Below are positions 42,525 through 56,331 of a stretch of 60,368 bases of DNA, in pieces. A program made the position numbers and the translations under genes. The stretch comes from an uncultured archaeon. Lineage in GTDB: Archaea > Asgardarchaeota > Hermodarchaeia > Hermodarchaeales > Hermodarchaeaceae. The notes under the pieces were generated by a model that was not told the DNA's origin, searched no databases, and saw only the letters and a program-made list of their open reading frames with translations. Within the stretch, counting starts at the first letter, position 1. Each line of letters opens with the position of its first letter. The stretch lies in contig CAYFXC010000006.1 in assembly GCA_964347045.1 (NCBI GenBank), forward strand, positions 40,047 to 100,414. The letters run 5' to 3'.

Positions 42525-42568
42525 TTGTTCAGTAATATTAGAACTATTGTTCAATTTTTACGAAACAA
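42525..42568. promoter_or_regulatory. Two tandem 22-bp imperfect palindromes (TTGTTC-N10-GAACAA consensus)
   Basis: TTGTTC-AGTAATATTA-GAACTA and TTGTTC-AATTTTTACG-AAACAA upstream of ArsR-GyrI gene. Confidence 0.6.
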
Positions 42569-42612
42569 ATAAAAGGGAATATCATACTCTTCTAGCTTGC
42601 TGGGATCTTCTC

Positions 42613-43500
42613 ATGAACGAGTTAGCTGTTGAAACTGCTTGGAACGTGGCGGGAAAACTTGGAAAGGACTTAGCCGTTGTGCTGGGCGCACTCGCGAATG
42701 AAAAACGGCTGCGTGTTCTTTCAGCATTGCTCGTTCGCCCTCGATTGTTTAGCGAGCTACGTGAGCTCACAGAGTTGGCAAAAACGGCGTTATCCCATCA
42801 TCTGGGGTTGTTGTTGAATGCTGATGTCATCAAGCAAACTGGTCGAGGTCGATACGAAATAACCCCTGATGGACAACAGATACTTACCGTCATTAGTTCT
42901 GCATACATTGAGTCAGCACGATATGATGAATTGAAAACGACTCAGACAAAGCGGTACATCGAGAAGATCTATGCGCTACGAAAAGAGAAGGAGATCGAAG
43001 ATTTGTTCGTACAAGTTGTTGAGCTCGAACCCATGCGCGTAGCCAGCGTTCGAGCCTTTAGTGGCTCGCCTGAAAATGATGCCTGGGAAAAAATGCGTGC
43101 ATGGGCTGAGCCCCAAGGATTATTGGATGACTTGACTAAACACCCGGTGTTCGGATTCAATAACCCGAATCCATCACCAGGTCAAAAGGAATACGGATAT
43201 GAGTTTTGGATCCGGATGGGTGCCCACTTTAAAGGTGAAAGTGAAATCGAAGCCAAGGATTATGAAGGTGGTCTGTTCGCAGTCACAACATCCAAGATCT
43301 GGGAAGAAATGCACTCAGACTTCGGGAAAGAACACGAGTATCTGGAATCGTGGAAAAAGCTCGTGGACTGGGTGATTCTTAGCAAAAAATATGAGATGGA
43401 TGAATCTCGACAGTGTCTCGAGAAACCACATGACCCGAATGCAACCTTCAAAGAAATGGTTCTGGATCTATATCAACCCATTAAGGAGGTTAAACGCTGA
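42613..43500 (+). CDS. ArsR-type HTH regulator fused to GyrI-like effector-binding domain
   Basis: LANEKRLRVL, FSEL...K.ALSHHL; LEPMRVAS, PE.DAW, FGFNNP.P, YGYEFW. Confidence 0.88.
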   Translation: MNELAVETAWNVAGKLGKDLAVVLGALANEKRLRVLSALLVRPRLFSELRELTELAKTALSHHLGLLLNADVIKQTGRGRYEITPDGQQILTVISSAYIESARYDELKTTQTKRYIEKIYALRKEKEIEDLFVQVVELEPMRVASVRAFSGSPENDAWEKMRAWAEPQGLLDDLTKHPVFGFNNPNPSPGQKEYGYEFWIRMGAHFKGESEIEAKDYEGGLFAVTTSKIWEEMHSDFGKEHEYLESWKKLVDWVILSKKYEMDESRQCLEKPHDPNATFKEMVLDLYQPIKEVKR

Positions 43501-44039
43501 TGGTCGATCTATCACAAATCCGATTTGCAGAAGCAACGAAAAACGATATTCCTGCAATGACTGAAGTGATGACACGAAGTTTTAATGATGATTCAAAACG
43601 ATTTAGAGGAGAACCGGAAGGGGGACCAAATGGATACAACAATGGAGATTTCTTCCGACAATGGATGGATCCTGGAGATTGCTTTAAAATAATGCTCGGT
43701 GAAAAAATAATCGGAGCATTCATCGTTTTCAAGGACTATCCTCAAAAAGGCTCGAATGTTCTAGGAACAATTTTCCTTGATCCGGAGTACCAGAATCAGG
43801 GAATCGGGACATTTGTCATGAATCATGTGCACCAAACATATCCCGCGAACCATTGGATCCTTGATACCCCCGAATGGCAAACTCGAAATCATCACTTCTA
43901 TGAGAAACTCGGTTATAGGAAGGTTGGCGAACAAAAAGAGCCCCATGCGGGATTTACGCTGCGTATTTATCAGAAAGATATGAGTGGGTCCGCAAAGGGT
44001 GGTGGAAAGCGTACTTTTTTCCGATGTCTAATAATATAG
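43500..44039 (+). CDS. GNAT family N-acetyltransferase
   Basis: IFLDPEYQNQGIG, LDTP.W..RNHHFYEKLGY. Confidence 0.92.
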   Translation: MVDLSQIRFAEATKNDIPAMTEVMTRSFNDDSKRFRGEPEGGPNGYNNGDFFRQWMDPGDCFKIMLGEKIIGAFIVFKDYPQKGSNVLGTIFLDPEYQNQGIGTFVMNHVHQTYPANHWILDTPEWQTRNHHFYEKLGYRKVGEQKEPHAGFTLRIYQKDMSGSAKGGGKRTFFRCLII

Positions 44040-46164: not shown

Positions 46165-46374
46165 ATTGATATCCCCATTCGCCACATTTCTATGATGGTA
46201 TTTAAGACGTCAGTCCTGTTTTAGAAAAGCTTCTAAGATATTGAGGTTCTCGTAATTAAATAAAAGTGCCATATTACTTTTAGCCTGGTCTGTGTTCGAT
46301 TTTATACGCCTAAAGAGATTGATTAGGCACTGGAAAATTCAAGTATTTAGTCATCCTATACAGGGGAGATAGTC

Positions 46375-49300
46375 ATGGATATCCGGGTCAAGGGTGCACA
46401 TGAACATAACCTCAAGGATATTGATGTCCAATTTCGTGATGGACTCACTGTAGTCACAGGTGTTTCTGGTTCTGGTAAAACATCCTTAGTCTTTGACACG
46501 GTATATCATGAAGCTCATCGACGGTTTTTGGATATCTTCTTGTATGGTCGCGGTGGACAACGCTTAGCTCCTGCAAAAGTAGAAACAATTACTGGGCTTG
46601 GCCCCACGATTGCTGTTGGACAAAATTTACTAAATCGAAACCCAGCATCAATCTTAGCAACGGCATCAGGGCTTCATCCGTTCTTTCGGCTACTTTATAC
46701 GAATTATGGAGTGCGCCATTGCTTGTATTGCGGTGAACCATTAGCTGTGTTGACAGAAGATGAAATCATTGAGCAATTATCAACACTAGCCAAAATGGAA
46801 CCTTTGGAAGTATTCGCACCTTTGGTCCAAGGCGTATATGGAAGCCACAAAACACTCTTAAATTTATTAAATAACCAGTTTGAACAAAGCCAAATCATCA
46901 TAGACAACAGAAAATGGGATGATAAAAAACTCGAAGCATCTCAACCTCATTCAATTGTAATAAAAATGGGCACCATTGATTCAACGAAATCGACTAAACA
47001 AGTGCGTGAGCTCATCAAAAGGGCGAACGCGTTAGGAGCCGGATCCATTCGAGCACATAGTAAAGAACGCAGTATCACGTTGGCAACTACACAAATTTGT
47101 AATGTATGCGGGAAAGGCTTCCGTGAATTACGGTCACCATATTTCAATCAATCGTGTCCATATTGTAAGGGAAAAGGATGTGATAGGTGTGACAATACCG
47201 GAATGCACCCTCAAGCTGCTTCCGTGCGGTGGGAGGAAATGCGACTCCCTGAACTCCTATCACTCTCTGTAGAAGAGGCATCATTATTATTCTCAAAAGT
47301 AACCCTACCATCTTCAGCCACACGATTAAGTTATGAAATTCAAAGGCGACTAAGTGCTTTAGAACGAGTCGGACTTGGATATCTTCATTTGAATCGCTCT
47401 GCGCCTACACTCTCTCGAGGAGAATCCCAACGGGTTCGATTAGCTATCTCTCTTTCGAGTAGATTAGAAGATATTTTACATGTGTTAGATGAACCGACGA
47501 TAGGACAACACCCAGCAGATGTTGCCCATTTTCTCCCAGCATTTCGAGATCTTGCAGGTCCAGTCATTTTCGTGGAGCACGATCGTGTTGCTGCTGCATC
47601 GGCAGATATGGCTATCGATTTGGGTCCTGGAGCGGGAAAAGATGGTGGAAAAGTAGTATTTGCTGGGTCACCGAAAGAACTCTGGAAACAGAAATCAGCT
47701 ACGGGTCGATATTTCAGTCTTCAGGATCGAGTTATGAGACCAGAATTGCGTCCACCACCTGTGTCATTTCTTAGCATCACTAAAGCCAATCAGCATAATC
47801 TCAAAAACATTGATGTTAAAATTCCGATCGGACGAATGACTGTAATCACTGGCGTCTCTGGCTCGGGTAAAAGCACTCTTGTCGAATATGTCCTGGTTCC
47901 TTCGCTAACTAAGAATGAAGCCATTGGATGTAAAAGCATTGATAGTCCAACAATCAAACCAATCTTGGTTGACCAGAGCCCCATTGGTCGGAATCCAAGG
48001 TCCAATCCGGCAACATATACGAAATTATCTGAAATCATTCGGGATTTGTTTGCAGAAACAACAGGATTATCAAAATCACATTTTTCCTTCAATCGCCCGG
48101 AAGGCGCCTGTCCCACTTGTAAGGGCATTGGGGCTAGCGAAATCAAAATGCAATATCTGCCTTCAATTTGGTTGCCCTGTTCGGATTGTGATGGACAACG
48201 TTTCAGTCCGGAAATTCTATCTGCTAAAGTGGATTTCAATGGTGAACAGCTGTCTATTGCTGATTTCTACGCTCTCCCGATTGCTGAAGTTGGAGAACGA
48301 CTCGAACAATCTGAATACATAACCTCTACTCGCCGCCAATCTGCACATCGAATGCTTAAAGCCCTAAACGATGTGGGACTCGGATATCTTGAGCTTGGAC
48401 AACCATCTCCAACCCTTTCAGGGGGAGAAGCTCAACGAGTGAAATTAACTAAATTCTTGGGTCGTAATAGATTGGCCAATCAGTTAATTGTCCTTGATGA
48501 ACCATCCACGGGTCTCCATCCTCAAGATCTTGATGGTTTGATTACTGTTTTAGACCGCTTAGTACGGCATGGCGCCACCATTCTTGTTGTTGAACATAAT
48601 ACAGATTTCATCCGAGCCGCTGACTGGATCATTGACTTAGGTCCAGGGGCTGGGCCAAAAGGTGGCAAAGTCCTCTTTGCTGGTCCACCAGAGGATCTTT
48701 TTGATGTAAAATCTTCCCTTACTAGTCAAGCCCTACAAGAAGAAAAGCGGGTTAAACCGCGTCCAATTTCGAAGACCGTGGTTGACATTGAACCGGTAAT
48801 ATCCATTCGAAACGCTCGAGCAAATAATCTGAAAGGTATAGATGTAGATATCCCAAAAGGCACACTTACTGTGATCACAGGTATATCTGGATCGGGAAAA
48901 TCGAGTCTTCTGCATGATGTGCTGCAAGCCGAAGCACGACGTCGGTATCTGGAAACCCTTTCAATGTATGAGCGGCAAGGACTCCGAGAAGGTCCAGAAG
49001 CCTTGGTGGATTCCATCACTGGATTAGGCGTCACCATTACAATAGCACCACACCGTGCTCACCTATGGAGCCACATCCCACAGTTCACTCGCCGTAACAG
49101 TGTCGGTGCACTAACCGAGATTAGTTTTCATCTAGCAAACCTGCTAGCCGCAATAGGAAATTGTGTATGCCTAGATTGCGGAACTATGATGAACCGCGAA
49201 GAAGAATGGTCCTGTCCAAAATGTCATACAACAGCACCAATTGCAAAACCTCAACACTTCTCTTCAACTCATTGGACCAGTTCGTGTGATAAATGCAGTG

Positions 49301-51300
49301 GCCTAGGTGTCTTGCATATCCCTGAACCGGAAAAACTCATCGTGAAACCGGATAAACCACTCTGTGCGGGGGCTATGTGGTCACCCGGCTATTGGCCTAA
49401 AACCTATCTATGTAAAGATCAACCGATCATCCCAGAGCTAGGAAAACAGTATGGATTTGATCCCTACAAAACACCATGGAAAAAAATGTCTAAGAGAGCA
49501 CAAGATGCTTTTCTGTATGGAGATGATAGAACCTATCAATTTACATATATCAGCAAATCAACAGGCAAGTTGAAAGGAAAGGAACGCCAAACGAAATGGA
49601 CTTGGCGAGGATTCTATCGAGAAGATAGCTGGATTTTTACCTGGGACATTCACGGGACTTACACCAAAGAAATTGTTTGCACCGAGTGTAATGGAGCAGG
49701 GCTACGCCCTGAATTCTTGGCAGTTACTCTTCAAGGGAAGAACATGTTTGAATTGAATGAGATGCCCCTCACTGAACTCGAAGATTTAGTTACAGGGCTT
49801 CCAGCCCCACCACCCGACATCCCAATGATTGATACCAGTATGCAAATTATTCGACGTCGGTTACGATTTCTACGACAGGTCGGAATCGGTTATCTTCATC
49901 TAAACCGTCCAACAGGAACGCTCTCAGCAGGTGAAGCCCAACGAATACAGCTTGCTAGCTTACTCGGAAGTAGATTGACTTCTTTAACGATTCTCGTTGA
50001 TGAGCCTTCACGGGGGATGCATCCCACAGAACTTGAAGCGCTTATTGAAGCACTTCAGGAACTACGTGAAGAGGGTAATACTGTTATTGTTGTGGAACAC
50101 GATCTTCTGTTCATTCGGGCTGCGGATCACGTCATTGACTTAGGTCCTCAGGCAGGGACCTTGGGTGGTGAGCTTGTTGCAGAAGGAAAGCCTACGGATA
50201 TCGTTAAAGCAAACACAATAACTGGGAAATGGTTGGAAAAACAAAGGAAGAAAGTGTCGTTGATGGAAGGGGGGCTAGATCAATGGATGGATTCTACAAA
50301 TCGACGCACACCCAAAGGATGGATTATCGTTAAAGGTGCACGTGCCAACAACTTGAAAGGAGAAGAGGTGCGAATTCCGCTAGTAAACCTAGTTGGGATT
50401 TGTGGCATATCCGGTTCAGGAAAAAGTACACTCCTTATTGACACTGTTGGACGAGCACTGGTCAAAAAACTACACTCCTCATCATTTGCCCGAGAACCCC
50501 TTGAGCCCGGACCATTTGATTCAATTACCAATAACCCGACACGGACCTTCATTGTAGATCAGTCAAGACGAGGAATTCAGAGCCCGGCAAGCTTTCTGAA
50601 TCTGTTCCGACCTATGATCAAACTCTTTCTAGATAGTGATGATGCACAAGCTTTAGGATTTGGAGAAAAAGAACTCACCCAAGGTTGCTCCGTCTGTAGG
50701 GGCCGCGGCTACTTGCGATTGGACATGGGATTTCTCCCCAATGAACTTGTGGAATGTGAAACATGTAGGGGAACGGGATATCGACCGGAAGCATGGGAAG
50801 TCAAGGTTCATGGTGTCGCTCTACCTGATATCAACCGAATGACACTCGATGAGATTCATAAACTCTTTCGAAATGAGCCCAGCATTACGACACCTCTTAG
50901 AATCGTGCGAGAGGTTGGATTAGGATATCTCGTTTGGCAACAACGAACCTATTCGCTTTCTGGTGGTGAAGTGCAACGGTTGAAAATTGCCAAAGAACTT
51001 CTAAAAAAGGCTAAGGAACCAACACTCTACATACTTGATGAACCCACTGTTGGACTCCACATGGAAGATGTAGCACGACTCATCTCAGTACTCAATAAGC
51101 TTGTAGATGCAGGACACACAGTTGTGATAGTCGAACACCATCCCCATATGCTAGCTTCGTGTGATTGGATTATCGAACTTGGACCGCGCGGAGGACCAGA
51201 GGGAGGAAAAGTAATCGCAACAGGCACACCGGAAGATATTGCTAAGAAGAACACGCCGACAGCACCATATCTTAGTGAGATTTTGGAGGTGAAATCATGA
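46375..51300 (+). CDS. uvrA: Double-length UvrA-family ABC ATPase (four NBDs)
   Basis: GA.E/ANNLK, four Walker A ([24 protein letters not shown] x2), LSxGE.QR x4, DEP x4, DQSPIGRNPRSNPATY, CxxC Zn sites. Confidence 0.9.
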   Translation: MDIRVKGAHEHNLKDIDVQFRDGLTVVTGVSGSGKTSLVFDTVYHEAHRRFLDIFLYGRGGQRLAPAKVETITGLGPTIAVGQNLLNRNPASILATASGLHPFFRLLYTNYGVRHCLYCGEPLAVLTEDEIIEQLSTLAKMEPLEVFAPLVQGVYGSHKTLLNLLNNQFEQSQIIIDNRKWDDKKLEASQPHSIVIKMGTIDSTKSTKQVRELIKRANALGAGSIRAHSKERSITLATTQICNVCGKGFRELRSPYFNQSCPYCKGKGCDRCDNTGMHPQAASVRWEEMRLPELLSLSVEEASLLFSKVTLPSSATRLSYEIQRRLSALERVGLGYLHLNRSAPTLSRGESQRVRLAISLSSRLEDILHVLDEPTIGQHPADVAHFLPAFRDLAGPVIFVEHDRVAAASADMAIDLGPGAGKDGGKVVFAGSPKELWKQKSATGRYFSLQDRVMRPELRPPPVSFLSITKANQHNLKNIDVKIPIGRMTVITGVSGSGKSTLVEYVLVPSLTKNEAIGCKSIDSPTIKPILVDQSPIGRNPRSNPATYTKLSEIIRDLFAETTGLSKSHFSFNRPEGACPTCKGIGASEIKMQYLPSIWLPCSDCDGQRFSPEILSAKVDFNGEQLSIADFYALPIAEVGERLEQSEYITSTRRQSAHRMLKALNDVGLGYLELGQPSPTLSGGEAQRVKLTKFLGRNRLANQLIVLDEPSTGLHPQDLDGLITVLDRLVRHGATILVVEHNTDFIRAADWIIDLGPGAGPKGGKVLFAGPPEDLFDVKSSLTSQALQEEKRVKPRPISKTVVDIEPVISIRNARANNLKGIDVDIPKGTLTVITGISGSGKSSLLHDVLQAEARRRYLETLSMYERQGLREGPEALVDSITGLGVTITIAPHRAHLWSHIPQFTRRNSVGALTEISFHLANLLAAIGNCVCLDCGTMMNREEEWSCPKCHTTAPIAKPQHFSSTHWTSSCDKCSGLGVLHIPEPEKLIVKPDKPLCAGAMWSPGYWPKTYLCKDQPIIPELGKQYGFDPYKTPWKKMSKRAQDAFLYGDDRTYQFTYISKSTGKLKGKERQTKWTWRGFYREDSWIFTWDIHGTYTKEIVCTECNGAGLRPEFLAVTLQGKNMFELNEMPLTELEDLVTGLPAPPPDIPMIDTSMQIIRRRLRFLRQVGIGYLHLNRPTGTLSAGEAQRIQLASLLGSRLTSLTILVDEPSRGMHPTELEALIEALQELREEGNTVIVVEHDLLFIRAADHVIDLGPQAGTLGGELVAEGKPTDIVKANTITGKWLEKQRKKVSLMEGGLDQWMDSTNRRTPKGWIIVKGARANNLKGEEVRIPLVNLVGICGISGSGKSTLLIDTVGRALVKKLHSSSFAREPLEPGPFDSITNNPTRTFIVDQSRRGIQSPASFLNLFRPMIKLFLDSDDAQALGFGEKELTQGCSVCRGRGYLRLDMGFLPNELVECETCRGTGYRPEAWEVKVHGVALPDINRMTLDEIHKLFRNEPSITTPLRIVREVGLGYLVWQQRTYSLSGGEVQRLKIAKELLKKAKEPTLYILDEPTVGLHMEDVARLISVLNKLVDAGHTVVIVEHHPHMLASCDWIIELGPRGGPEGGKVIATGTPEDIAKKNTPTAPYLSEILEVKS

Positions 51301-52340
51301 CCTGGGCGCCGTTACTTCTTGCAGATCCGTCACCAAGCCTTCGGTTACTTGTCTTACGAGACTTATTGAATCGCCCCGAATCTGATGAGGAAGTCCAAGA
51401 GCTTCGAAAACTCCAACCGAGTGACCCAATTGTAGAGAAATTCCTTGCACTTCAAGAGAAGGATGGCTCCTTCAGAAGTGGAGAAGGAGGAGGTGCAATT
51501 CTAGGGCGAATTCGCATGACCGCTCAAGCCCTCATGGGTTTAGGTTATTTCGGATTAGGCCCCAAGCACCCCGCGATTAGAAGAGGAGCTGAATTTCTTT
51601 TCGCGCAACAGCAAGCTGATGGGTCATTTCCAATGATAGCACAAGGAGCAGTATTGGATGGAGGACAAGCAGCAGATGTGAAGTACCATGCGATACCGGT
51701 TCAAACTGCCTTACCCCTCATAGGACTAGCGTGGGTAGGATATGCAACGGATTCACGAGCAGAATTAGCCTATGAATGGCTCCTTAACGAAGAACTCTCA
51801 GAGGGAGGTTGGCCTTCAGGTCGCCACAAGGACAAATACATTTTTGCGGCAGGATATCGCCGCCTCCCGCATTCCAAATTCGGCTGTCGCACCAACACCA
51901 CAGCAGCCGTCAGTGCATTGGCATTACATCCTACACGACGCACTAGTGAACCCGCACGACGTGGTCTGAAAAAACTACTCGCCCAAAAACAACGCCCAGC
52001 ACACACCCTGGGATTTGAGGTCGCACGGATTGTCGGCGCCGAACCCCCACGGGGCGGCTTCACCTATTTCAAACGCTATGATGTAGCACAAATACTTGAC
52101 CTAGCCTGGCGAATCGGAGCCAACATGGACGACCCCCGCATCGCTGACAACGTCAAATTTGTCCAAAAACTACAAGGCCCCTATGGACTCTGGGAATACC
52201 CACGATACCCCGAAGTCACCCGATGGATAACCTTCGATATCCTCCGATCCCTAACCCACCTAGACCAAAACACTAACTGGTTCAACACAGAACCCCCAAC
52301 CCCCTTCCAACCCTACCCCAAAAAACCACCACGGTTCTAA
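51297..52340 (+). CDS. Prenyltransferase/squalene-cyclase repeat (alpha/alpha toroid) protein
   Basis: QW-like repeats LQEKDGSF, QQADGSF, ELSEGGW, LQGPYGLW; ATGA overlap with uvrA-like gene. Confidence 0.75.
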   Translation: MTWAPLLLADPSPSLRLLVLRDLLNRPESDEEVQELRKLQPSDPIVEKFLALQEKDGSFRSGEGGGAILGRIRMTAQALMGLGYFGLGPKHPAIRRGAEFLFAQQQADGSFPMIAQGAVLDGGQAADVKYHAIPVQTALPLIGLAWVGYATDSRAELAYEWLLNEELSEGGWPSGRHKDKYIFAAGYRRLPHSKFGCRTNTTAAVSALALHPTRRTSEPARRGLKKLLAQKQRPAHTLGFEVARIVGAEPPRGGFTYFKRYDVAQILDLAWRIGANMDDPRIADNVKFVQKLQGPYGLWEYPRYPEVTRWITFDILRSLTHLDQNTNWFNTEPPTPFQPYPKKPPRF

Positions 52341-52460: not shown

Positions 52461-53009
52461 TTATAGTTTTGATATAATATTATTAGCAAATAGTGCTGCA
52501 TTCTCTAAATCCTTGGAGTTTGGGTGCGTTCTAACTTCAGAAAGGTATTCCGCCCATTCATCATCGGATACTATGATTTCACGATGAATGAACGCTTCAA
52601 TTGGCGCTGATGGAGCCCCCATACAATGGAAATATCCAAGAAATCGTATTCTTTTTTCTTGACATTTTCTCTCAAAAGTAGGAACACATTTCCCAGCCCA
52701 TTGTGCGAATAATTCCTTTCGCCTTGCAGTATGATCAGGCGTAAAAGTGGCGTGGGTGAAGAATCCAGCTATTTTAAATTTTGGATGGTGAGGGAGGTTG
52801 TCTAAGAACCGAATAAATGGACGTGCAAGATCTGCATCATGGCAGCTTGACCCAAGAAATAATACATCATAAGAAATGAGCTCATCAGATGAAACATCTT
52901 GAATCTTACTAAGTTTCACTTCATTGTCCGCGGAAACCGCTTTATGAATTGCTTCAGCAATCTTTTGCGTGTTCCTAGTTTCGCTGTAATAGGCGATAAG
53001 AATTTTCAT
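52461..53009 (-). CDS. Flavodoxin domain protein
   Basis: YYSETRNTQKIAEAI, YD.LFLGS, F.C.G, HP...DL..A..FA. Confidence 0.85.
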   Translation of the reverse strand: MKILIAYYSETRNTQKIAEAIHKAVSADNEVKLSKIQDVSSDELISYDVLFLGSSCHDADLARPFIRFLDNLPHHPKFKIAGFFTHATFTPDHTARRKELFAQWAGKCVPTFERKCQEKRIRFLGYFHCMGAPSAPIEAFIHREIIVSDDEWAEYLSEVRTHPNSKDLENAALFANNIISKL

Positions 53010-53055
53010 GAAGTCAATATGAATTACAAGTTAATAAAATCAATGAAATCTGAGT

Positions 53056-53982
53056 CTATTCGTTTAGCCCACGATCCCAGTATGCCGCATTCACCCACTG
53101 GCTGATAAATTGATCAATATCTTTAGGATAGGTGTAATCAAGCTTTTCTGCTACCTCTTTTGCAATCCAACGAAACAGTTGCATTGTATTTGCCAGCGCT
53201 TGCCACACATCATCCTCATCGTAATGCGCAAACGCCCCTCTTAGATCTGCAATTATCCGGGGGTCAGCCCACCTCTCTAAGAACCTCCCTCGAAACCACG
53301 TGTCATGAGTCTGACCTTGATTTACTTGTGCATGCCACTCGATCATAGGTAGAAGACTCCGACTCTTCATAAAAGAGTCTAGACAGCTCTTTCCTTCCCA
53401 AAGTTCACCGCGGCGAAGTTTCTTGGCAGCCCAGACAGCATGGTACCAAAAATCATGAACTCTTTCAAGATATTCATGTTCTGTTGGAAAATCTGGTGGT
53501 GGAACCTCAATCGTTTTGAATTCTTTGAGAAAGGCATCCATAACACCGTCCTTGTCAACTAATATCCGGATTCCTCGACCAATAATATTGGCATTTTCCT
53601 TTACAAATTCGGGAGTAATACCCTGTTTCTTTGCTTCTAGAACAAAACGAAAAGGCTCAACAGCAAAATCCACGTCTAAACCATTATCAAACAATACACG
53701 ACGCTCATAGTTATCCCCTGATCCAACAGCGATGGGTTCAACAAAAGTAATTACTGGATTTCCAAACTGGCTGACCCACTCTCCAGAATCTAGGAGAGTT
53801 CGTGGTTTAGTCGAAAAGATTATGATATCGAGATCGGACCATCTATCAGCTGGAGTTTTCGTTCGGGCATAGGAACCCACAACATAGGCCAATCGAATGT
53901 GGTCTTGAGTTTTTGCCCATTTAATGAATTTCCTTTCGACACTTTTGTAGAATTTAATGATTTCAGATTTGTCTAACAGCAA
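53056..53982 (-). CDS. Aminoglycoside 6-adenylyltransferase (ANT(6)/AadK)-like nucleotidyltransferase
   Basis: GSYAR...DRWSDLD, VLF..G.DVD, LVDKD, FW......K.L.RGE, GRFLE.W. Confidence 0.85.
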   Translation of the reverse strand: MLLDKSEIIKFYKSVERKFIKWAKTQDHIRLAYVVGSYARTKTPADRWSDLDIIIFSTKPRTLLDSGEWVSQFGNPVITFVEPIAVGSGDNYERRVLFDNGLDVDFAVEPFRFVLEAKKQGITPEFVKENANIIGRGIRILVDKDGVMDAFLKEFKTIEVPPPDFPTEHEYLERVHDFWYHAVWAAKKLRRGELWEGKSCLDSFMKSRSLLPMIEWHAQVNQGQTHDTWFRGRFLERWADPRIIADLRGAFAHYDEDDVWQALANTMQLFRWIAKEVAEKLDYTYPKDIDQFISQWVNAAYWDRGLNE

Positions 53983-53992
53983 TTAACCACCC

Positions 53993-55039
53993 TTATAATC
54001 TTTCAAGAGCTTGTATGAGAAACTCTCCCTCTCGATTAAGCCATTGCTCAGCACCTTCACGAAACATTGGATGTGCAAACCAAGAATTCACCGCATATAG
54101 CATAGCAGTCGCATGCCAGGCACCAATAAATAGGTCCAAATACTTCCATTGGGATTTCGGCATCGGACGGATCTCCGTATATCCCTCTAATAGGGCCTTT
54201 AGTATTGGTTCGCGTGTCTCGATATCTTCGAGTTCAGCTACTGAAATAGCCAAATCATAAATCCAATAACCATAGGCGGAGTCGTCAAAATCAATGGGTC
54301 GCGTATCTCCTTGATACCAGAGAATATTAGTATCCAAGCATAAATCAGCATGAATCAAGCCATAAACATCTGACCCTTTACCTAAATCATTCATAACAAT
54401 ACGAACCTGATTAGTAACAAGATCGAGGGGTTCTCGATAATTTTTAGGTATTGCCTCCCAGAGTTTACTTGCGGGAAATTCGAATAGTCCACCATCACTG
54501 AAGAGTCCTTCCCAATCATAGTGAATCCGTGTGAAACCTTTTGGTGGTGTCCAATGAACAGCATGATTGTGTAATTGTGCTGCGATTCGACCAAGTATCT
54601 TATAATGATGTGGAAGAATTTCTTTAGGGGTTTTGCGTCCTTTTACCCAACGTAGAAGTGTTGCATTTTGAGGGGATGGTATTCCTGGGACATCAGTAGT
54701 GGTTACAAGCTCACCTTTGTTATTTTGAATAGGTTCAGGCACAATTAGGTTTGTATCTTGAAGGAGGGCTTGAAGCCAGAGTAATTCCGATCGAATAGCA
54801 TCAGTTGTTTGATATTTTGGTTGGTGTAAACGTAAGATGTAGTGATTTTCCCAAAATCGTCCATCCTCTGGTTCGCTTGGAGCACACCTAGAGGTGTCCA
54901 CTTGATAATGGGCGTTGCCGGTATAGTCAATGAATTTCAGCTTCGCGTTTGATAGATTATAGGCATCCAGAGCCGCTTGGGCTTGTTTCCTTAAACGCTG
55001 AATCCGACCTCGTGCTGTGAGTTCATTGAATGACTTCAT
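53993..55039 (-). CDS. APH/homoserine-kinase-II family phosphotransferase
   Basis: I.SEL.WL, GLIHADL...N, IDFDD..YG...YD. Confidence 0.9.
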   Translation of the reverse strand: MKSFNELTARGRIQRLRKQAQAALDAYNLSNAKLKFIDYTGNAHYQVDTSRCAPSEPEDGRFWENHYILRLHQPKYQTTDAIRSELLWLQALLQDTNLIVPEPIQNNKGELVTTTDVPGIPSPQNATLLRWVKGRKTPKEILPHHYKILGRIAAQLHNHAVHWTPPKGFTRIHYDWEGLFSDGGLFEFPASKLWEAIPKNYREPLDLVTNQVRIVMNDLGKGSDVYGLIHADLCLDTNILWYQGDTRPIDFDDSAYGYWIYDLAISVAELEDIETREPILKALLEGYTEIRPMPKSQWKYLDLFIGAWHATAMLYAVNSWFAHPMFREGAEQWLNREGEFLIQALERL

Positions 55040-56190
55040 TTTTCGATTTTCACCTCACAAGTTAGTTCGAAGAAATCAGCTAACCGGATTGCATCAAGAC
55101 TAACATCATCTAGTTGAGATTTGGAAAGAGGATTAAAGGGCTCGATTATGAGGTTGATTTTCTTGGTAGTGCGTTTCTGGTTCCAAGTCCCGATTACTTT
55201 GCCTTCTTGAAGAAGGACCGGGGCAATCCATGCAGCCTTCTTGAAAACCAAATTGTAGTGTGATTCGTCAACAATATGACTTTTGTCTTTATGTCCGAGA
55301 AGAAAGATATCAAAATTCGGTAATAGGCGAACTGGTCGTGGTTCAATCTGAGTTTCCAAGAGTTTGTTTAAATCGTCTTGGAGAATCAAGAGAGGTTTCC
55401 CATTTAGTCTGACTTCAGCTAGTTTATGCAGGTTTCTTTCCCAGATTGAATTGACTATGGTCATTTTAAGTCCTGCCCAGGTAGAGAAATCTTGGGGAGT
55501 AGCAGGACCATAGCTTTGAAGATAATTCATTAAAATCGTATCTTCTGCTGTTTCTTTTTCAATCTCTGGTTGAATAGGGAGCCATTGATTAGTCAATACT
55601 AGTGATGCTTTTCCATTCAAATAGGGACCAAAGCAGGCTTTCCCCTCATACGCGAGGAGTTTTGTTACAATATAGTATCCTGTATCTACCCAAGGACGAG
55701 CGTCATTTCCTATCTCTTTTGCGACATGATTTGCTACTTCATCCTTGGTGGCCGGTCCATCTGCAAGGACATCCTCAATTGCATTAAGAATTGCTTCGAA
55801 ATCATGTTGAGACGGATCAAATTTTGCTACTTCACCAAATTCTCGAATTCCACGTTTTTCGAGCCAGGTCTTATGTTGTGCTATTCGTGGTTCGATTATT
55901 GCCTTCAAATAAGCTACAAAGTCCTTGGTTGCGAGATAGTGGGCTGTGCCACGCATACACCAAGTGCGAAGGATTAATTTGGAGGTCCAAAGTGCGTTTC
56001 TAATATCTTCTGGTTTGAGATTGTCAATTCGTGCCCATAGCTGAAGATTAGCTGCTGCAGGCATTTGAGCTTGAATCCCACAGACTCTTGAAACCACTTG
56101 TTCGAGGTCGTTTGAAGAAGCTCTCTCAGTTAAGAAATGGCGATCCATGCGAAATCCATTGATTTGTTCTTGAGTAACTTCAGTTGCCAT
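55036..56190 (-). CDS. AlkZ/YcaQ (HTH_42) family DNA glycosylase, QxQ type
   Basis: GIQAQ, RTWCMRGTAH, YL..YGPAT..DF..WAGL, LLP.FD.FLLG, G.V.GTW. Confidence 0.9.
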   Translation of the reverse strand: MATEVTQEQINGFRMDRHFLTERASSNDLEQVVSRVCGIQAQMPAAANLQLWARIDNLKPEDIRNALWTSKLILRTWCMRGTAHYLATKDFVAYLKAIIEPRIAQHKTWLEKRGIREFGEVAKFDPSQHDFEAILNAIEDVLADGPATKDEVANHVAKEIGNDARPWVDTGYYIVTKLLAYEGKACFGPYLNGKASLVLTNQWLPIQPEIEKETAEDTILMNYLQSYGPATPQDFSTWAGLKMTIVNSIWERNLHKLAEVRLNGKPLLILQDDLNKLLETQIEPRPVRLLPNFDIFLLGHKDKSHIVDESHYNLVFKKAAWIAPVLLQEGKVIGTWNQKRTTKKINLIIEPFNPLSKSQLDDVSLDAIRLADFFELTCEVKIEK

Positions 56191-56331
56191 CCTGTGCACC
56201 TAGAGAAAAAGCAATGAGGGCTAGAATCTGTATTACTTATTGATAGCCTTTATGTCATGAAGAAGTCAAGAATGAAGATTGGATAAACATTTCAAGATAC
56301 CAATACATAAGATAGGATAACGTGAGCCAAC

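Follow-up and report, generated by a model that had tools for sequence, protein, structure and literature searches.

A single open reading frame from an uncultured archaeon of the Hermodarchaeaceae encodes two UvrA units in one chain, each of which has lost a different accessory domain, and is followed directly by a gene for an (alpha/alpha)6 toroid protein. The two genes have been inherited together across archaea and bacteria. They lie in a window of 60,368 nucleotides, the whole stretch of DNA that was analysed. The best explanation found for the tandem UvrA (P0001) and its toroid partner (P0123), one that is held with as much doubt as confidence, is that they form a two-gene DNA-surveillance module that works independently of UvrB and UvrC and in which the asymmetry of the UvrA2-UvrB1-DNA intermediate appears to be hard-wired.

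For decades, work on UvrA has dealt with a symmetric homodimer, and it is an open question how a sensor with two equal protomers selects one strand and finishes with a single UvrB. Cryo-EM work of 2025 answers this question with a transient asymmetry between the UvrA protomers (PMC11985968). In the P0001 family such an asymmetry seems to have been fixed in the sequence, as if by a natural experiment, which would make the family well suited to tests of the division-of-labour model. Beyond this, the pair, with its obligate and highly conserved toroid protein, is a sign that sediment Asgard archaea, Bathyarchaeia, Chloroflexota and others may protect their DNA by a route that has not been described.

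A tandem UvrA with complementary domain losses

The model TIGR00630 matches both halves of P0001, and the chain as a whole has four Walker A, four Walker B and four signature motifs together with twelve CxxC motifs, which follow one another in the order expected of UvrA. The features of the locus are as follows.

46375..51300, + strand: tandem UvrA gene P0001, an intact ORF of 1641 aa plus stop, from the ORF list and translation
46375..48729, + strand: half 1, aa 1-785, with NBD-I, UvrB-binding-like domain, signature I, NBD-II, signature II and third zinc module
46732..47097, + strand: UvrB-binding-like domain of half 1, aa 120-241, between CLYC 116 and CNVC 242
47155..47190, + strand: collapsed second zinc module of half 1, CPYC-x4-CDRC, aa 261-272, where the insertion domain is gone
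47410..47424, + strand: signature I of half 1, LSRGE, at aa 346, with R348 in 119/119 family members
48730..48798, + strand: linker between the halves, aa 786-808, roughly 20 residues of variable sequence
48799..51297, + strand: half 2, aa 809-1641, with NBD-I, insertion domain, signature I, NBD-II, signature II and third zinc module
49030..49110, + strand: half-2 NBD-I, stretch around the degenerate Q-loop, aa 886-912, including 7 inserted aa
49168..49224, + strand: collapsed first zinc module of half 2, CLDC-x11-CPKC, aa 932-950, where the UvrB-binding domain is gone
49285..49689, + strand: insertion (DNA-clamping) domain of half 2 with its flanking CxxC pairs, aa 971-1105
49921..49935, + strand: signature I of half 2, LSAGE, at aa 1183, with A1185 in 117/119 family members
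51297..52340, + strand: partner gene P0123, encoding a 347-aa (alpha/alpha)6 toroid protein, with its ATG overlapping the UvrA stop codon (ATGA at 51297-51300)

In a three-way alignment with the canonical UvrA of the same genome (P0002), the insert of half 1 was assigned as the UvrB-binding domain and that of half 2 as the insertion domain (aa 975-1101 for the domain proper), and the accessory domain that each half does not retain was seen to be cleanly excised. Pfam places UvrA_inter at aa 127-228 (E 4e-5, 23.8 bits against a cut-off of 23.3) and UvrA_DNA-bind at aa 985-1064 (E 4e-7), and the half-2 insertion domain can be aligned to 3zqj/9ga5 with HMMER. A third zinc module is present in each half, with CxxC motifs at 579/602 and 1438/1461, and its hairpins are kept in both.

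The initial annotation had described one chain in which two UvrA units have lost complementary domains, with one UvrB-binding-like domain in half 1 and one insertion domain in half 2. This layout is confirmed by the alignment to P0002, by Pfam and by its fixation in 119 homologues, and neither half retains both accessory domains. The CxxC spacings it gave for half 1 also held, with 122 residues between CLYC 116 and CNVC 242 and 4 between CPYC 261 and CDRC 269. In half 2, the 127 residues between CDKC 971 and CTEC 1102 agree with its count, whereas CLDC 932 and CPKC 947 are separated by 11 residues rather than about 9. The altered signatures were correctly noticed: LSGGE is the usual signature I in non-family UvrA units (38 of 46), so LSRGE and LSAGE are real deviations, but the label "proximal" was wrong, as in the nomenclature of UvrA signature I helps to build the distal ATP site.

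The kinship with UvrA extends to predicted structure. An AlphaFold2 model of half 1 (pLDDT 90, pTM 0.85), in which the UvrB-binding-like domain has a confident alpha/beta fold, matches UvrA structures at Z 45, with 775/800 residues aligned to the UvrA chain of 3uwx (945 residues), and the class II structures 2vf7 and 7sh1 at Z 43.

The 119 full-length homologues, which are 59-76% identical, come from MAGs of Asgard archaea, Bathyarchaeota, Chloroflexota, Acidobacteriota and Desulfobacterota. CxxC spacing and layout are the same in all of them, and, with the shared signatures, this means that the layout of P0001 is not due to chance. At all four ATP sites, no variation was seen among the 119 sequences in Walker A (with its Lys at K35, K499, K842 and K1350 of P0001), the Walker B DEP or the H-loop His, and the Q-loop Gln is invariant in three of the NBDs, but not in half-2 NBD-I. 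All four Cys of the collapsed CPYC-x4-CDRC module are at least 90% conserved, and Y1011 in the half-2 insertion domain, the equivalent of M. tuberculosis UvrA Y323, is kept in 118/119 members. The lowest conservation in the family is found in the linker (aa 791-808, mean majority fraction 0.38), and the least conserved folded region is the UvrB-binding-like domain of half 1 (0.58). Among canonical-like UvrA units, only the Cys and three Gly/Ala columns of the docking domain reach 75%, which makes it too variable for a comparison of UvrB contacts.

[quoted passage not shown] All four positions are basic in the canonical UvrA of the source genome, while half 1 of P0001 keeps one and half 2 none, as mapped across an indel-rich stretch. 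With most of these residues lost, DNA may be held differently or more weakly by P0001.

In a FastTree phylogeny, the half-1 sequences form one clade and the half-2 sequences another, each with a support of 100, and the inner topologies of the two clades agree, from which it follows that the fusion of the halves is old. Internal duplication was considered as the origin of the double gene and rejected, since the halves are not sisters in this tree, the only one made, in which the basal branches are weak (support 43).

The toroid partner and its linkage to the tandem UvrA

The product of the downstream gene is a basic protein (pI 9.45) with QxxDG[FW]-type repeats and a conserved, disordered C-terminal tail. 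It is matched by Pfam SQHop_cyclase_C (PF13243) with E 1.3e-8 and 34.7 bits against a cut-off of 26.1, and its model (pLDDT 80, pTM 0.84) is a single (alpha/alpha)6 barrel with QW-type repeats that resembles squalene-hopene cyclase 1gsz at Z 15.7 and the thioester domains of C5, TEP1 and C4 at Z 14-15. The catalytic DxDD motif is absent from both the partner sequence and the family consensus, and the NCBIfam cyclase models score far under every cut-off (21.5 bits against 431 for TIGR01507). The CGEQ thioester motif is likewise absent from the partner, in which the sole invariant Cys, C197, lies in G-C-R-T-N-T-T; H192 and H211 are invariant as well. As modelled, the fold gives no hint of DNA chemistry. 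A search of the ESM Atlas with the partner returned only its own family, and at E 1e-8 there was no homologue among 72,556 plasmids.

A scan with motifs specific to the P0001 subfamily gave 42 named loci, all from MAGs. The toroid gene lies directly 3' of the tandem UvrA in 40/40 testable species-representative loci, and the same pair was found with differing neighbours in Bathyarchaeota, Chloroflexota, Anaerolineae and Acidobacteria. Across the loci the identities of the two proteins drop in step, from 76/81% to 44/45% (UvrA/toroid). In at least one lineage the two genes have been fused in frame: P0247 is a natural UvrA-toroid fusion of 1846 aa in which both ends at the junction are trimmed. 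No third conserved gene stands beside the pair in the 42 loci; a gene cluster that at first appeared to be one, at 28 loci, consisted of antisense shadow ORFs inside the UvrA gene. The pair is also never adjacent to uvrB or uvrC in these loci.

Within the window, an operon of an AlkZ-like glycosylase, an APH, an ANT(6)-like protein and a flavodoxin converges on the pair, and at two other loci a nitroreductase and an old-yellow-enzyme gene stand beside it.

Anti-phage defence was rejected as a role for the pair: in PADLOC the UvrA drew only generic ABC matches, and the partner none.

A possible role in DNA surveillance and its alternatives

In the UvrA2-UvrB1-DNA complex of M. tuberculosis (Genta et al. 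2025, PMC11985968; PDB 9ga3), the protomer on which UvrB docks is the one with its insertion domain released from the DNA, and the insertion domain of the other protomer holds the flipped lesion, with Y323. Docking of UvrB and engagement of the insertion domain are mutually exclusive within one protomer (PMC11985968). In a surveillance module built on this plan, the two halves of P0001 would cooperate in an ATP-driven sensor for DNA that is distorted or carries adducts, each half with its own fixed task. The insertion domain, present only in half 2, would be the lesion-holding "recognition-ID", and the sole docking domain, in half 1, would recruit one effector molecule, most likely the toroid partner rather than UvrB. 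The initial annotation had interpreted the layout as a built-in asymmetric sensor, and that interpretation is partly supported.

A further proposal can be put forward only tentatively, namely that the pair is a self-contained DNA guard that does without UvrB and UvrC, its single insertion domain finding a lesion or a DNA-bound compound and handing the site to the toroid docked on half 1. If true, a protein of terpene-cyclase fold would be a new kind of DNA-repair or detoxification factor, and the family would be an argument from nature for the "division of labour" model of the UvrA protomers. To our knowledge, the alpha/alpha-toroid fold has never been linked to DNA repair before.

The distribution of uvrB and uvrC bears on this role. 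As the initial annotation stated, neither gene lies in the window, but the source genome does have a canonical uvrB-uvrA-uvrC cluster, on contig C5. In five chromosome-level Bathyarchaeota MAGs (CP070765, CP070730, CP070754, CP070828 and CP070679), the pair is present and uvrB was not found, nor was it found in three less complete relatives. The search for uvrC and canonical uvrA covered one of the five, CP070765 (1.51 Mb, one contig), which has no uvrB, uvrC or canonical uvrA. Carriers among the Hermodarchaeota, Chloroflexota and Acidobacteria do have uvrB, so that UvrB could still be used there. This occurrence of uvrB in the source genome and several carriers was counted against a UvrBC-independent module, as were the weak conservation of the docking-like domain relative to the other folded parts, the loss of most signature-II basic residues and a partner fold that lacks any hint of DNA chemistry.

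The leading alternative, to which we give perhaps half the weight of the surveillance module, is tolerance of drugs or genotoxins of the DrrC/Ecm16 kind, in which the fused UvrA would find DNA bearing an intercalator or a bulky natural-product adduct and dislodge the compound with ATP, while the cavity of the toroid would bind, sequester or modify it. It differs from surveillance mainly in the substrate and in the role of the partner. The class II protein Ecm16 confers echinomycin resistance without UvrA, UvrB, UvrC or UvrD and depends on its ATPase, and half 2 of P0001 has the class II layout; the module is found without uvrB, and the terpene-cyclase-like fold of the partner is of a type that typically encloses hydrophobic ligands. 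Tolerance would also suit the genes that follow the fusion P0247 (a DrrA-like ABC ATPase, an ABC2 membrane protein and a GNAT), the AlkZ-like/APH/ANT(6)-like/flavodoxin operon, and the nitroreductase and old-yellow-enzyme gene. However, neighbours vary across phyla with no third gene conserved, no biosynthetic cluster was seen, the partner has no DxDD motif and no known ligand, and the carriers are anaerobic sediment MAGs.

It is improbable that P0001 forms no intramolecular pseudo-dimer at all, its halves being separate UvrA-like units of which at least two chains join in a larger complex, or its target being something other than duplex DNA. The loss of most canonical DNA-binding residues of signature domain II would be accommodated by such an arrangement, as would the best PADLOC match, the ABC ATPase mad3 (E 2e-119 over 8 stretches), which fits a generic ABC similarity. 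Against it, one domain has been lost per half, in complementary fashion and family-wide, and the trees of the halves are congruent, which argues that the halves work as one unit; moreover, the insertion domain is present with the conserved Tyr, neither half has lost its third-zinc-module hairpin, and PADLOC gives no match for the partner.

Also improbable is an accessory damage sensor for canonical excision repair, in which the docking domain of half 1 would load one host UvrB and the toroid would be a regulator, for although uvrB-uvrA-uvrC is present in the source genome and in Hermodarchaeota, Chloroflexota and Acidobacteria carriers, and the docking-like domain of half 1 is a homologue of the UvrB-binding domain, this is opposed by the five Bathyarchaeota MAGs with the pair and without uvrB (CP070765 also without uvrC), by the 42 loci in which the pair never stands beside uvrB or uvrC, and by the divergence of the docking-like domain, so close to its Pfam cut-off.

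Comparison with known UvrA classes and partner folds

P0001 shares with class I UvrA (TIGR00630/NF001503; 2r6f, 3pih, 3zqj, 3uwx, 9ga3, 9gxk) the core of two NBDs with signature domains and three zinc modules per half, each module with four Cys, two of the modules being reduced to stubs in P0001. It is about 39% identical to the genome's own UvrA, and both its single docking domain and its single insertion domain have their homologues in class I. It differs in being a double unit of which each unit misses one accessory domain, in having LSRGE/LSAGE in place of LSGGE and one degenerate Q-loop, in the replacement of most signature-II DNA-binding basic residues, and in being paired every time with a toroid gene. 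The summed TIGR00630 score of 1386 bits exceeds the cut-off of 729.8, but in the genome search the individual matches (549, 504, 153 and 102 bits) each fall below it, and the true uvrA reaches 1367. Class I proteins work with UvrB and UvrC, whereas this module occurs in genomes without uvrB (the five MAGs, with the absence of uvrC seen in CP070765, where it was checked).

Class II UvrA (D. radiodurans UvrA2, DrrC, Ecm16; 2vf7, 7sh1) resembles half 2, which likewise has the insertion domain and no UvrB-binding domain. Those proteins, however, are single-length homodimers with neither docking domain nor toroid partner, while half 1 of P0001 has the reverse layout and the chain is of double length. 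The Chlamydia-type double UvrA (NF001885/PRK00635, a 1809-aa model) gives P0001 only 928 bits against a cut-off of 3054, matching aa 268-933. Other tandem UvrAs, among them full tandems (one of 1916 aa) and double class II forms, also have two UvrA units in one chain, but either the first half, at least, has both domains or the docking domain is missing from both halves; they branch apart from the P0001 family in the tree, and the one inspected has no toroid gene downstream. Tandem UvrAs are abundant in metagenomes, where nearly all of the top 150 representatives are 1550-2340 aa long, and public data show them in several further architectures, so that a double-length chain is by itself nothing out of the ordinary.

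No described class with the layout of P0001 was found among the HMM models or in the searchable literature, which names only class I and class II and does not describe the UvrA-toroid pair. A 2008 review by Goosen and Moolenaar is said to list further UvrA classes. The partner has the toroid fold and QW-type repeats of class II terpene cyclases such as squalene-hopene cyclase, from which, with their two barrels, it differs as a single 347-aa barrel without DxDD, and it shares the toroid fold, but not CGEQ, with the thioester domains of alpha-2-macroglobulin and complement.

A mechanistic parallel for the surveillance module is the M. tuberculosis intermediate, in which one protomer docks and the other clamps; P0001 has exactly one of each of these domains, on different halves. 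For the UvrA of M. tuberculosis, a symmetric homodimer, being asymmetric is a transient state and the recruited protein is UvrB, whereas the asymmetry of P0001 is built into the sequence.

Domain layout of the double UvrA

Two overlapping genes are at issue, one for a tandem UvrA (P0001, the double UvrA; half 1, aa 1-785; half 2, aa 809-1641) and one for a smaller protein (P0123, the partner), together called the pair.

46375-51300, + strand: double UvrA gene, one uninterrupted reading frame of 1641 codons (ORF and translation)
51297-52340, + strand: partner gene, 347 codons, its ATGA overlapping the UvrA stop at 51297-51300

The double UvrA gene is genuine and intact, and its conservation is strong. 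It encodes Walker A motifs at aa 29, 493, 836 and 1344, four Walker B motifs, LSxGE signatures at aa 346, 681, 1183 and 1528, and 12 CxxC motifs; both halves are matched by the NCBIfam UvrA model, and UvrA structures are the best solved relatives (E 1e-192 or better). At the end of the 189-nt region 5' of its start (46186-46374), a GGGGAG 6 nt before the ATG resembles a ribosome-binding site.

Domains were assigned by aligning each half to the canonical UvrA of the source genome (P0002, 992 aa, contig C5). In half 1, zinc module 1 (C116/C119 ... C242/C245) encloses 122 residues that align to the UvrB-binding domain of P0002, and zinc module 2 is collapsed to CPYC-x4-CDRC, so that the insertion domain is missing. 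Half 2 has zinc module 1 collapsed to CLDC-x11-CPKC and zinc module 2 (C971 ... C1105) enclosing 127 residues that align to the insertion domain. Pfam places UvrA_inter at aa 127-228 and UvrA_DNA-bind at aa 985-1064. Half 1, modelled with AlphaFold2 from a 38-sequence alignment (pLDDT 90, pTM 0.85), contains the docking-like domain as a confident alpha/beta unit and, in the structural comparison proposed by the initial annotation, matches UvrA structures at Z 45; 775/800 residues align to the UvrA chain of 3uwx (945 residues). The evidence confirms one docking-like domain (half 1) and one insertion domain (half 2) per chain, as had been read from the CxxC spacings, which held overall apart from small differences.

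Conservation and ancestry of the two halves

Among the best 120 matches listed, 119 are full-length (1617-1689 aa), with 59-76% identity over the whole length. The CxxC spacing is identical in all 119, and no member departs from the four Walker A motifs, the DEP of the four Walker B motifs or the four H-loop histidines. Variation along the alignment is greatest in the inter-half linker; of the folded parts, the docking-like domain has the lowest conservation. Three nucleotide-binding domains have an invariant Q-loop glutamine; in NBD-I of half 2 the loop is degenerate, with a 7-residue insert. R348 (LSRGE, half 1) is present in 119/119 members and A1185 (LSAGE, half 2) in 117/119; since 38/46 UvrA units from outside the family have LSGGE as signature I, both are fixed deviations. 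The initial annotation had termed these signatures altered and proximal: the alteration stands, but the ATP site that signature I completes is, by UvrA nomenclature, the distal one (PMC7835731).

In a quick FastTree phylogeny of 71 UvrA half-units, whose basal branches lack resolution, the half-1s of the family form one clade and its half-2s another (support 100 each). The matching inner branching of these separate clades indicates that the fusion of the halves predates the spread of the family. The two clades are not sisters, and both fall outside canonical UvrAs as well as tandem UvrAs of other types; half 1 and half 2 of the double UvrA share 35% identity, and each shares about 39% with P0002.

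The toroid partner and the genomes that carry the pair

The partner (pI 9.45) is modelled as an (alpha/alpha)6 toroid (pLDDT 80, pTM 0.84); its nearest structural matches are squalene-hopene cyclase (Z 15.7) and, at Z 14-15, the thioester domains of C5, TEP1 and C4. Set against class II terpene cyclases such as the former, it shares QxxDG[FW] repeats and lacks DxDD; set against the thioester domains, it has a similar toroid but no CGEQ motif. Its invariant G-C-R-T-N-T-T motif belongs to an invariant stretch, GYRRLxHSxFGCRTNTT (aa 186-202, with H192, C197 and N200), and the tail (aa 326-347, PFQxYPKKxxRF) is conserved, basic and poorly ordered in the model.

A scan by motif, with each species represented by one genome, yielded 42 partner loci, every one from MAGs; their labels are Hermodarchaeota or Promethearchaeota, Odinarchaeota, Bathyarchaeota, Anaerolineales, Dehalococcoidia, Chloroflexia, Desulfatiglans or Desulfobacterales, and Acidobacteriota. 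A UvrA tail lies directly upstream in all 40 testable loci, most with the same overlap. Two chromosomes (one Bathyarchaeota, one Chloroflexota) and two contigs (one Anaerolineae, one Acidobacteria) have the partner gene behind the double UvrA amid otherwise unrelated neighbours, and clustering of all flanking ORFs of the surveyed loci found no third conserved gene. Partner identity, 71-83% in the best 119 of 1764 matches (the window's own protein excluded), exceeds UvrA conservation, and the two identities drop in parallel from locus to locus. Four longer proteins join both in frame. One, the natural fusion P0247 (1846 aa), occurs on two contigs with both junction ends trimmed and is therefore not explicable as a simple frameshift error; P0246 was discounted as a genuine fusion, its gene being otherwise fragmented on its contig.

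In L028 (4001-12216), genes for a DrrA-like ABC ATPase (PF13732), an ABC2 membrane protein and a GNAT lie behind the P0247 gene, a set that recalls the drrAB/drrC daunorubicin-resistance genes. In the window, an operon converges on the pair (52461-56199, - strand: flavodoxin, streptomycin-adenylyltransferase-like PF04439, aminoglycoside-phosphotransferase-like, AlkZ-like DNA glycosylase PF06224), and an ArsR-HTH/GyrI-like regulator and a GNAT lie upstream (42547-44039, + strand); this neighbourhood is not conserved in other phyla.

The source genome (2.58 Mb, 83 contigs, 89% complete) does possess uvrB and uvrC, noted initially as absent from the window: they adjoin uvrA on contig C5, so that the double UvrA is a paralogue there, not the sole UvrA. 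It occurs in 13/14 genomes of the genus and 16/18 of the family and is rare elsewhere in the phylum. In Bathyarchaeota the pair is patchy (7/41 relatives). CP070765 (1.51 Mb, one contig, MAG completeness not given) has the pair, and uvrB, uvrC and canonical uvrA were not found; nor was uvrB found in the Bathyarchaeota 'chromosome' MAGs CP070730, CP070754, CP070828 and CP070679 (completeness not given), which also carry the pair, or in three less complete relatives of these. The module is thus independent of UvrB/UvrC, at least in those hosts. Only one Bathyarchaeota genome, CP070835, was found to have uvrB along with two canonical uvrA; its partner is truncated (L055 6001-6906; aa 46-347) and has no double-UvrA tail beside it, which may be a decayed module. 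The finding is better framed as a two-gene module able to work without UvrB or UvrC.

Comparison with known UvrA systems

No description of the family or the pair was found in the literature searched, which did not extend to key older UvrA reviews. The double UvrA is not class I, given a single accessory domain in each unit and single-unit scores below the cut-off, nor class II, because of its double length and the reverse layout of half 1, and it fails the Chlamydia-type double-UvrA model (928 bits vs 3054). In a survey of 1.84 billion representatives, with layouts assigned among P0249-P0398 by a rough CxxC-spacing rule that left many sequences unassigned, tandem UvrAs of 1550-2340 aa proved abundant, in at least four layouts. 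About 10 representatives share that of the double UvrA; others have both domains in both halves, only the insertion domain in both, or both in the first and only docking in the second, this common form being probably the Chlamydia type. A 1916-aa tandem UvrA from the same phylum (L024 4499-10249, G021:C24) has both domains in both halves and, unlike the double UvrA, has an unrelated repeat protein rather than a toroid encoded after it.

A mechanistic parallel comes from the M. tuberculosis structures of UvrA2-DNA, UvrA2-UvrB1-DNA and UvrA2-UvrB2-DNA by Genta et al. 2025 (PMC11985968). In these, a 'recognition' insertion domain grips a flipped base, with Y323 stacking in, and a second serves as 'support'; a protomer cannot, for steric reasons, dock and clamp DNA at once, and the first UvrB goes to the docking domain of the protomer with the released insertion domain. 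By HMMER alignment, Y323 (in a chain carrying a 21-residue tag) corresponds to Y1011 of the double UvrA, present in 118/119 members. A caveat concerns DNA binding: of four basic signature-domain-II residues reported essential for it in M. tuberculosis (R725, K735, R737 and R743; R744, R754, R756 and R762 in P0002), half 1 retains only R556, plus a His, and half 2 none. The degenerate Q-loop sits in half 2, which has no docking domain, and might, we conjecture, fit the reported coupling of the proximal ATP site to UvrB and DNA interactions (PMC7835731). By inference from this parallel, the halves would pair inside one chain, and the toroid partner would dock on aa 120-241 of half 1. The distribution of the UvrA2-UvrB1-DNA complex is built into the double UvrA: half 1 has the docking domain but lacks the insertion domain, and half 2 is the opposite.
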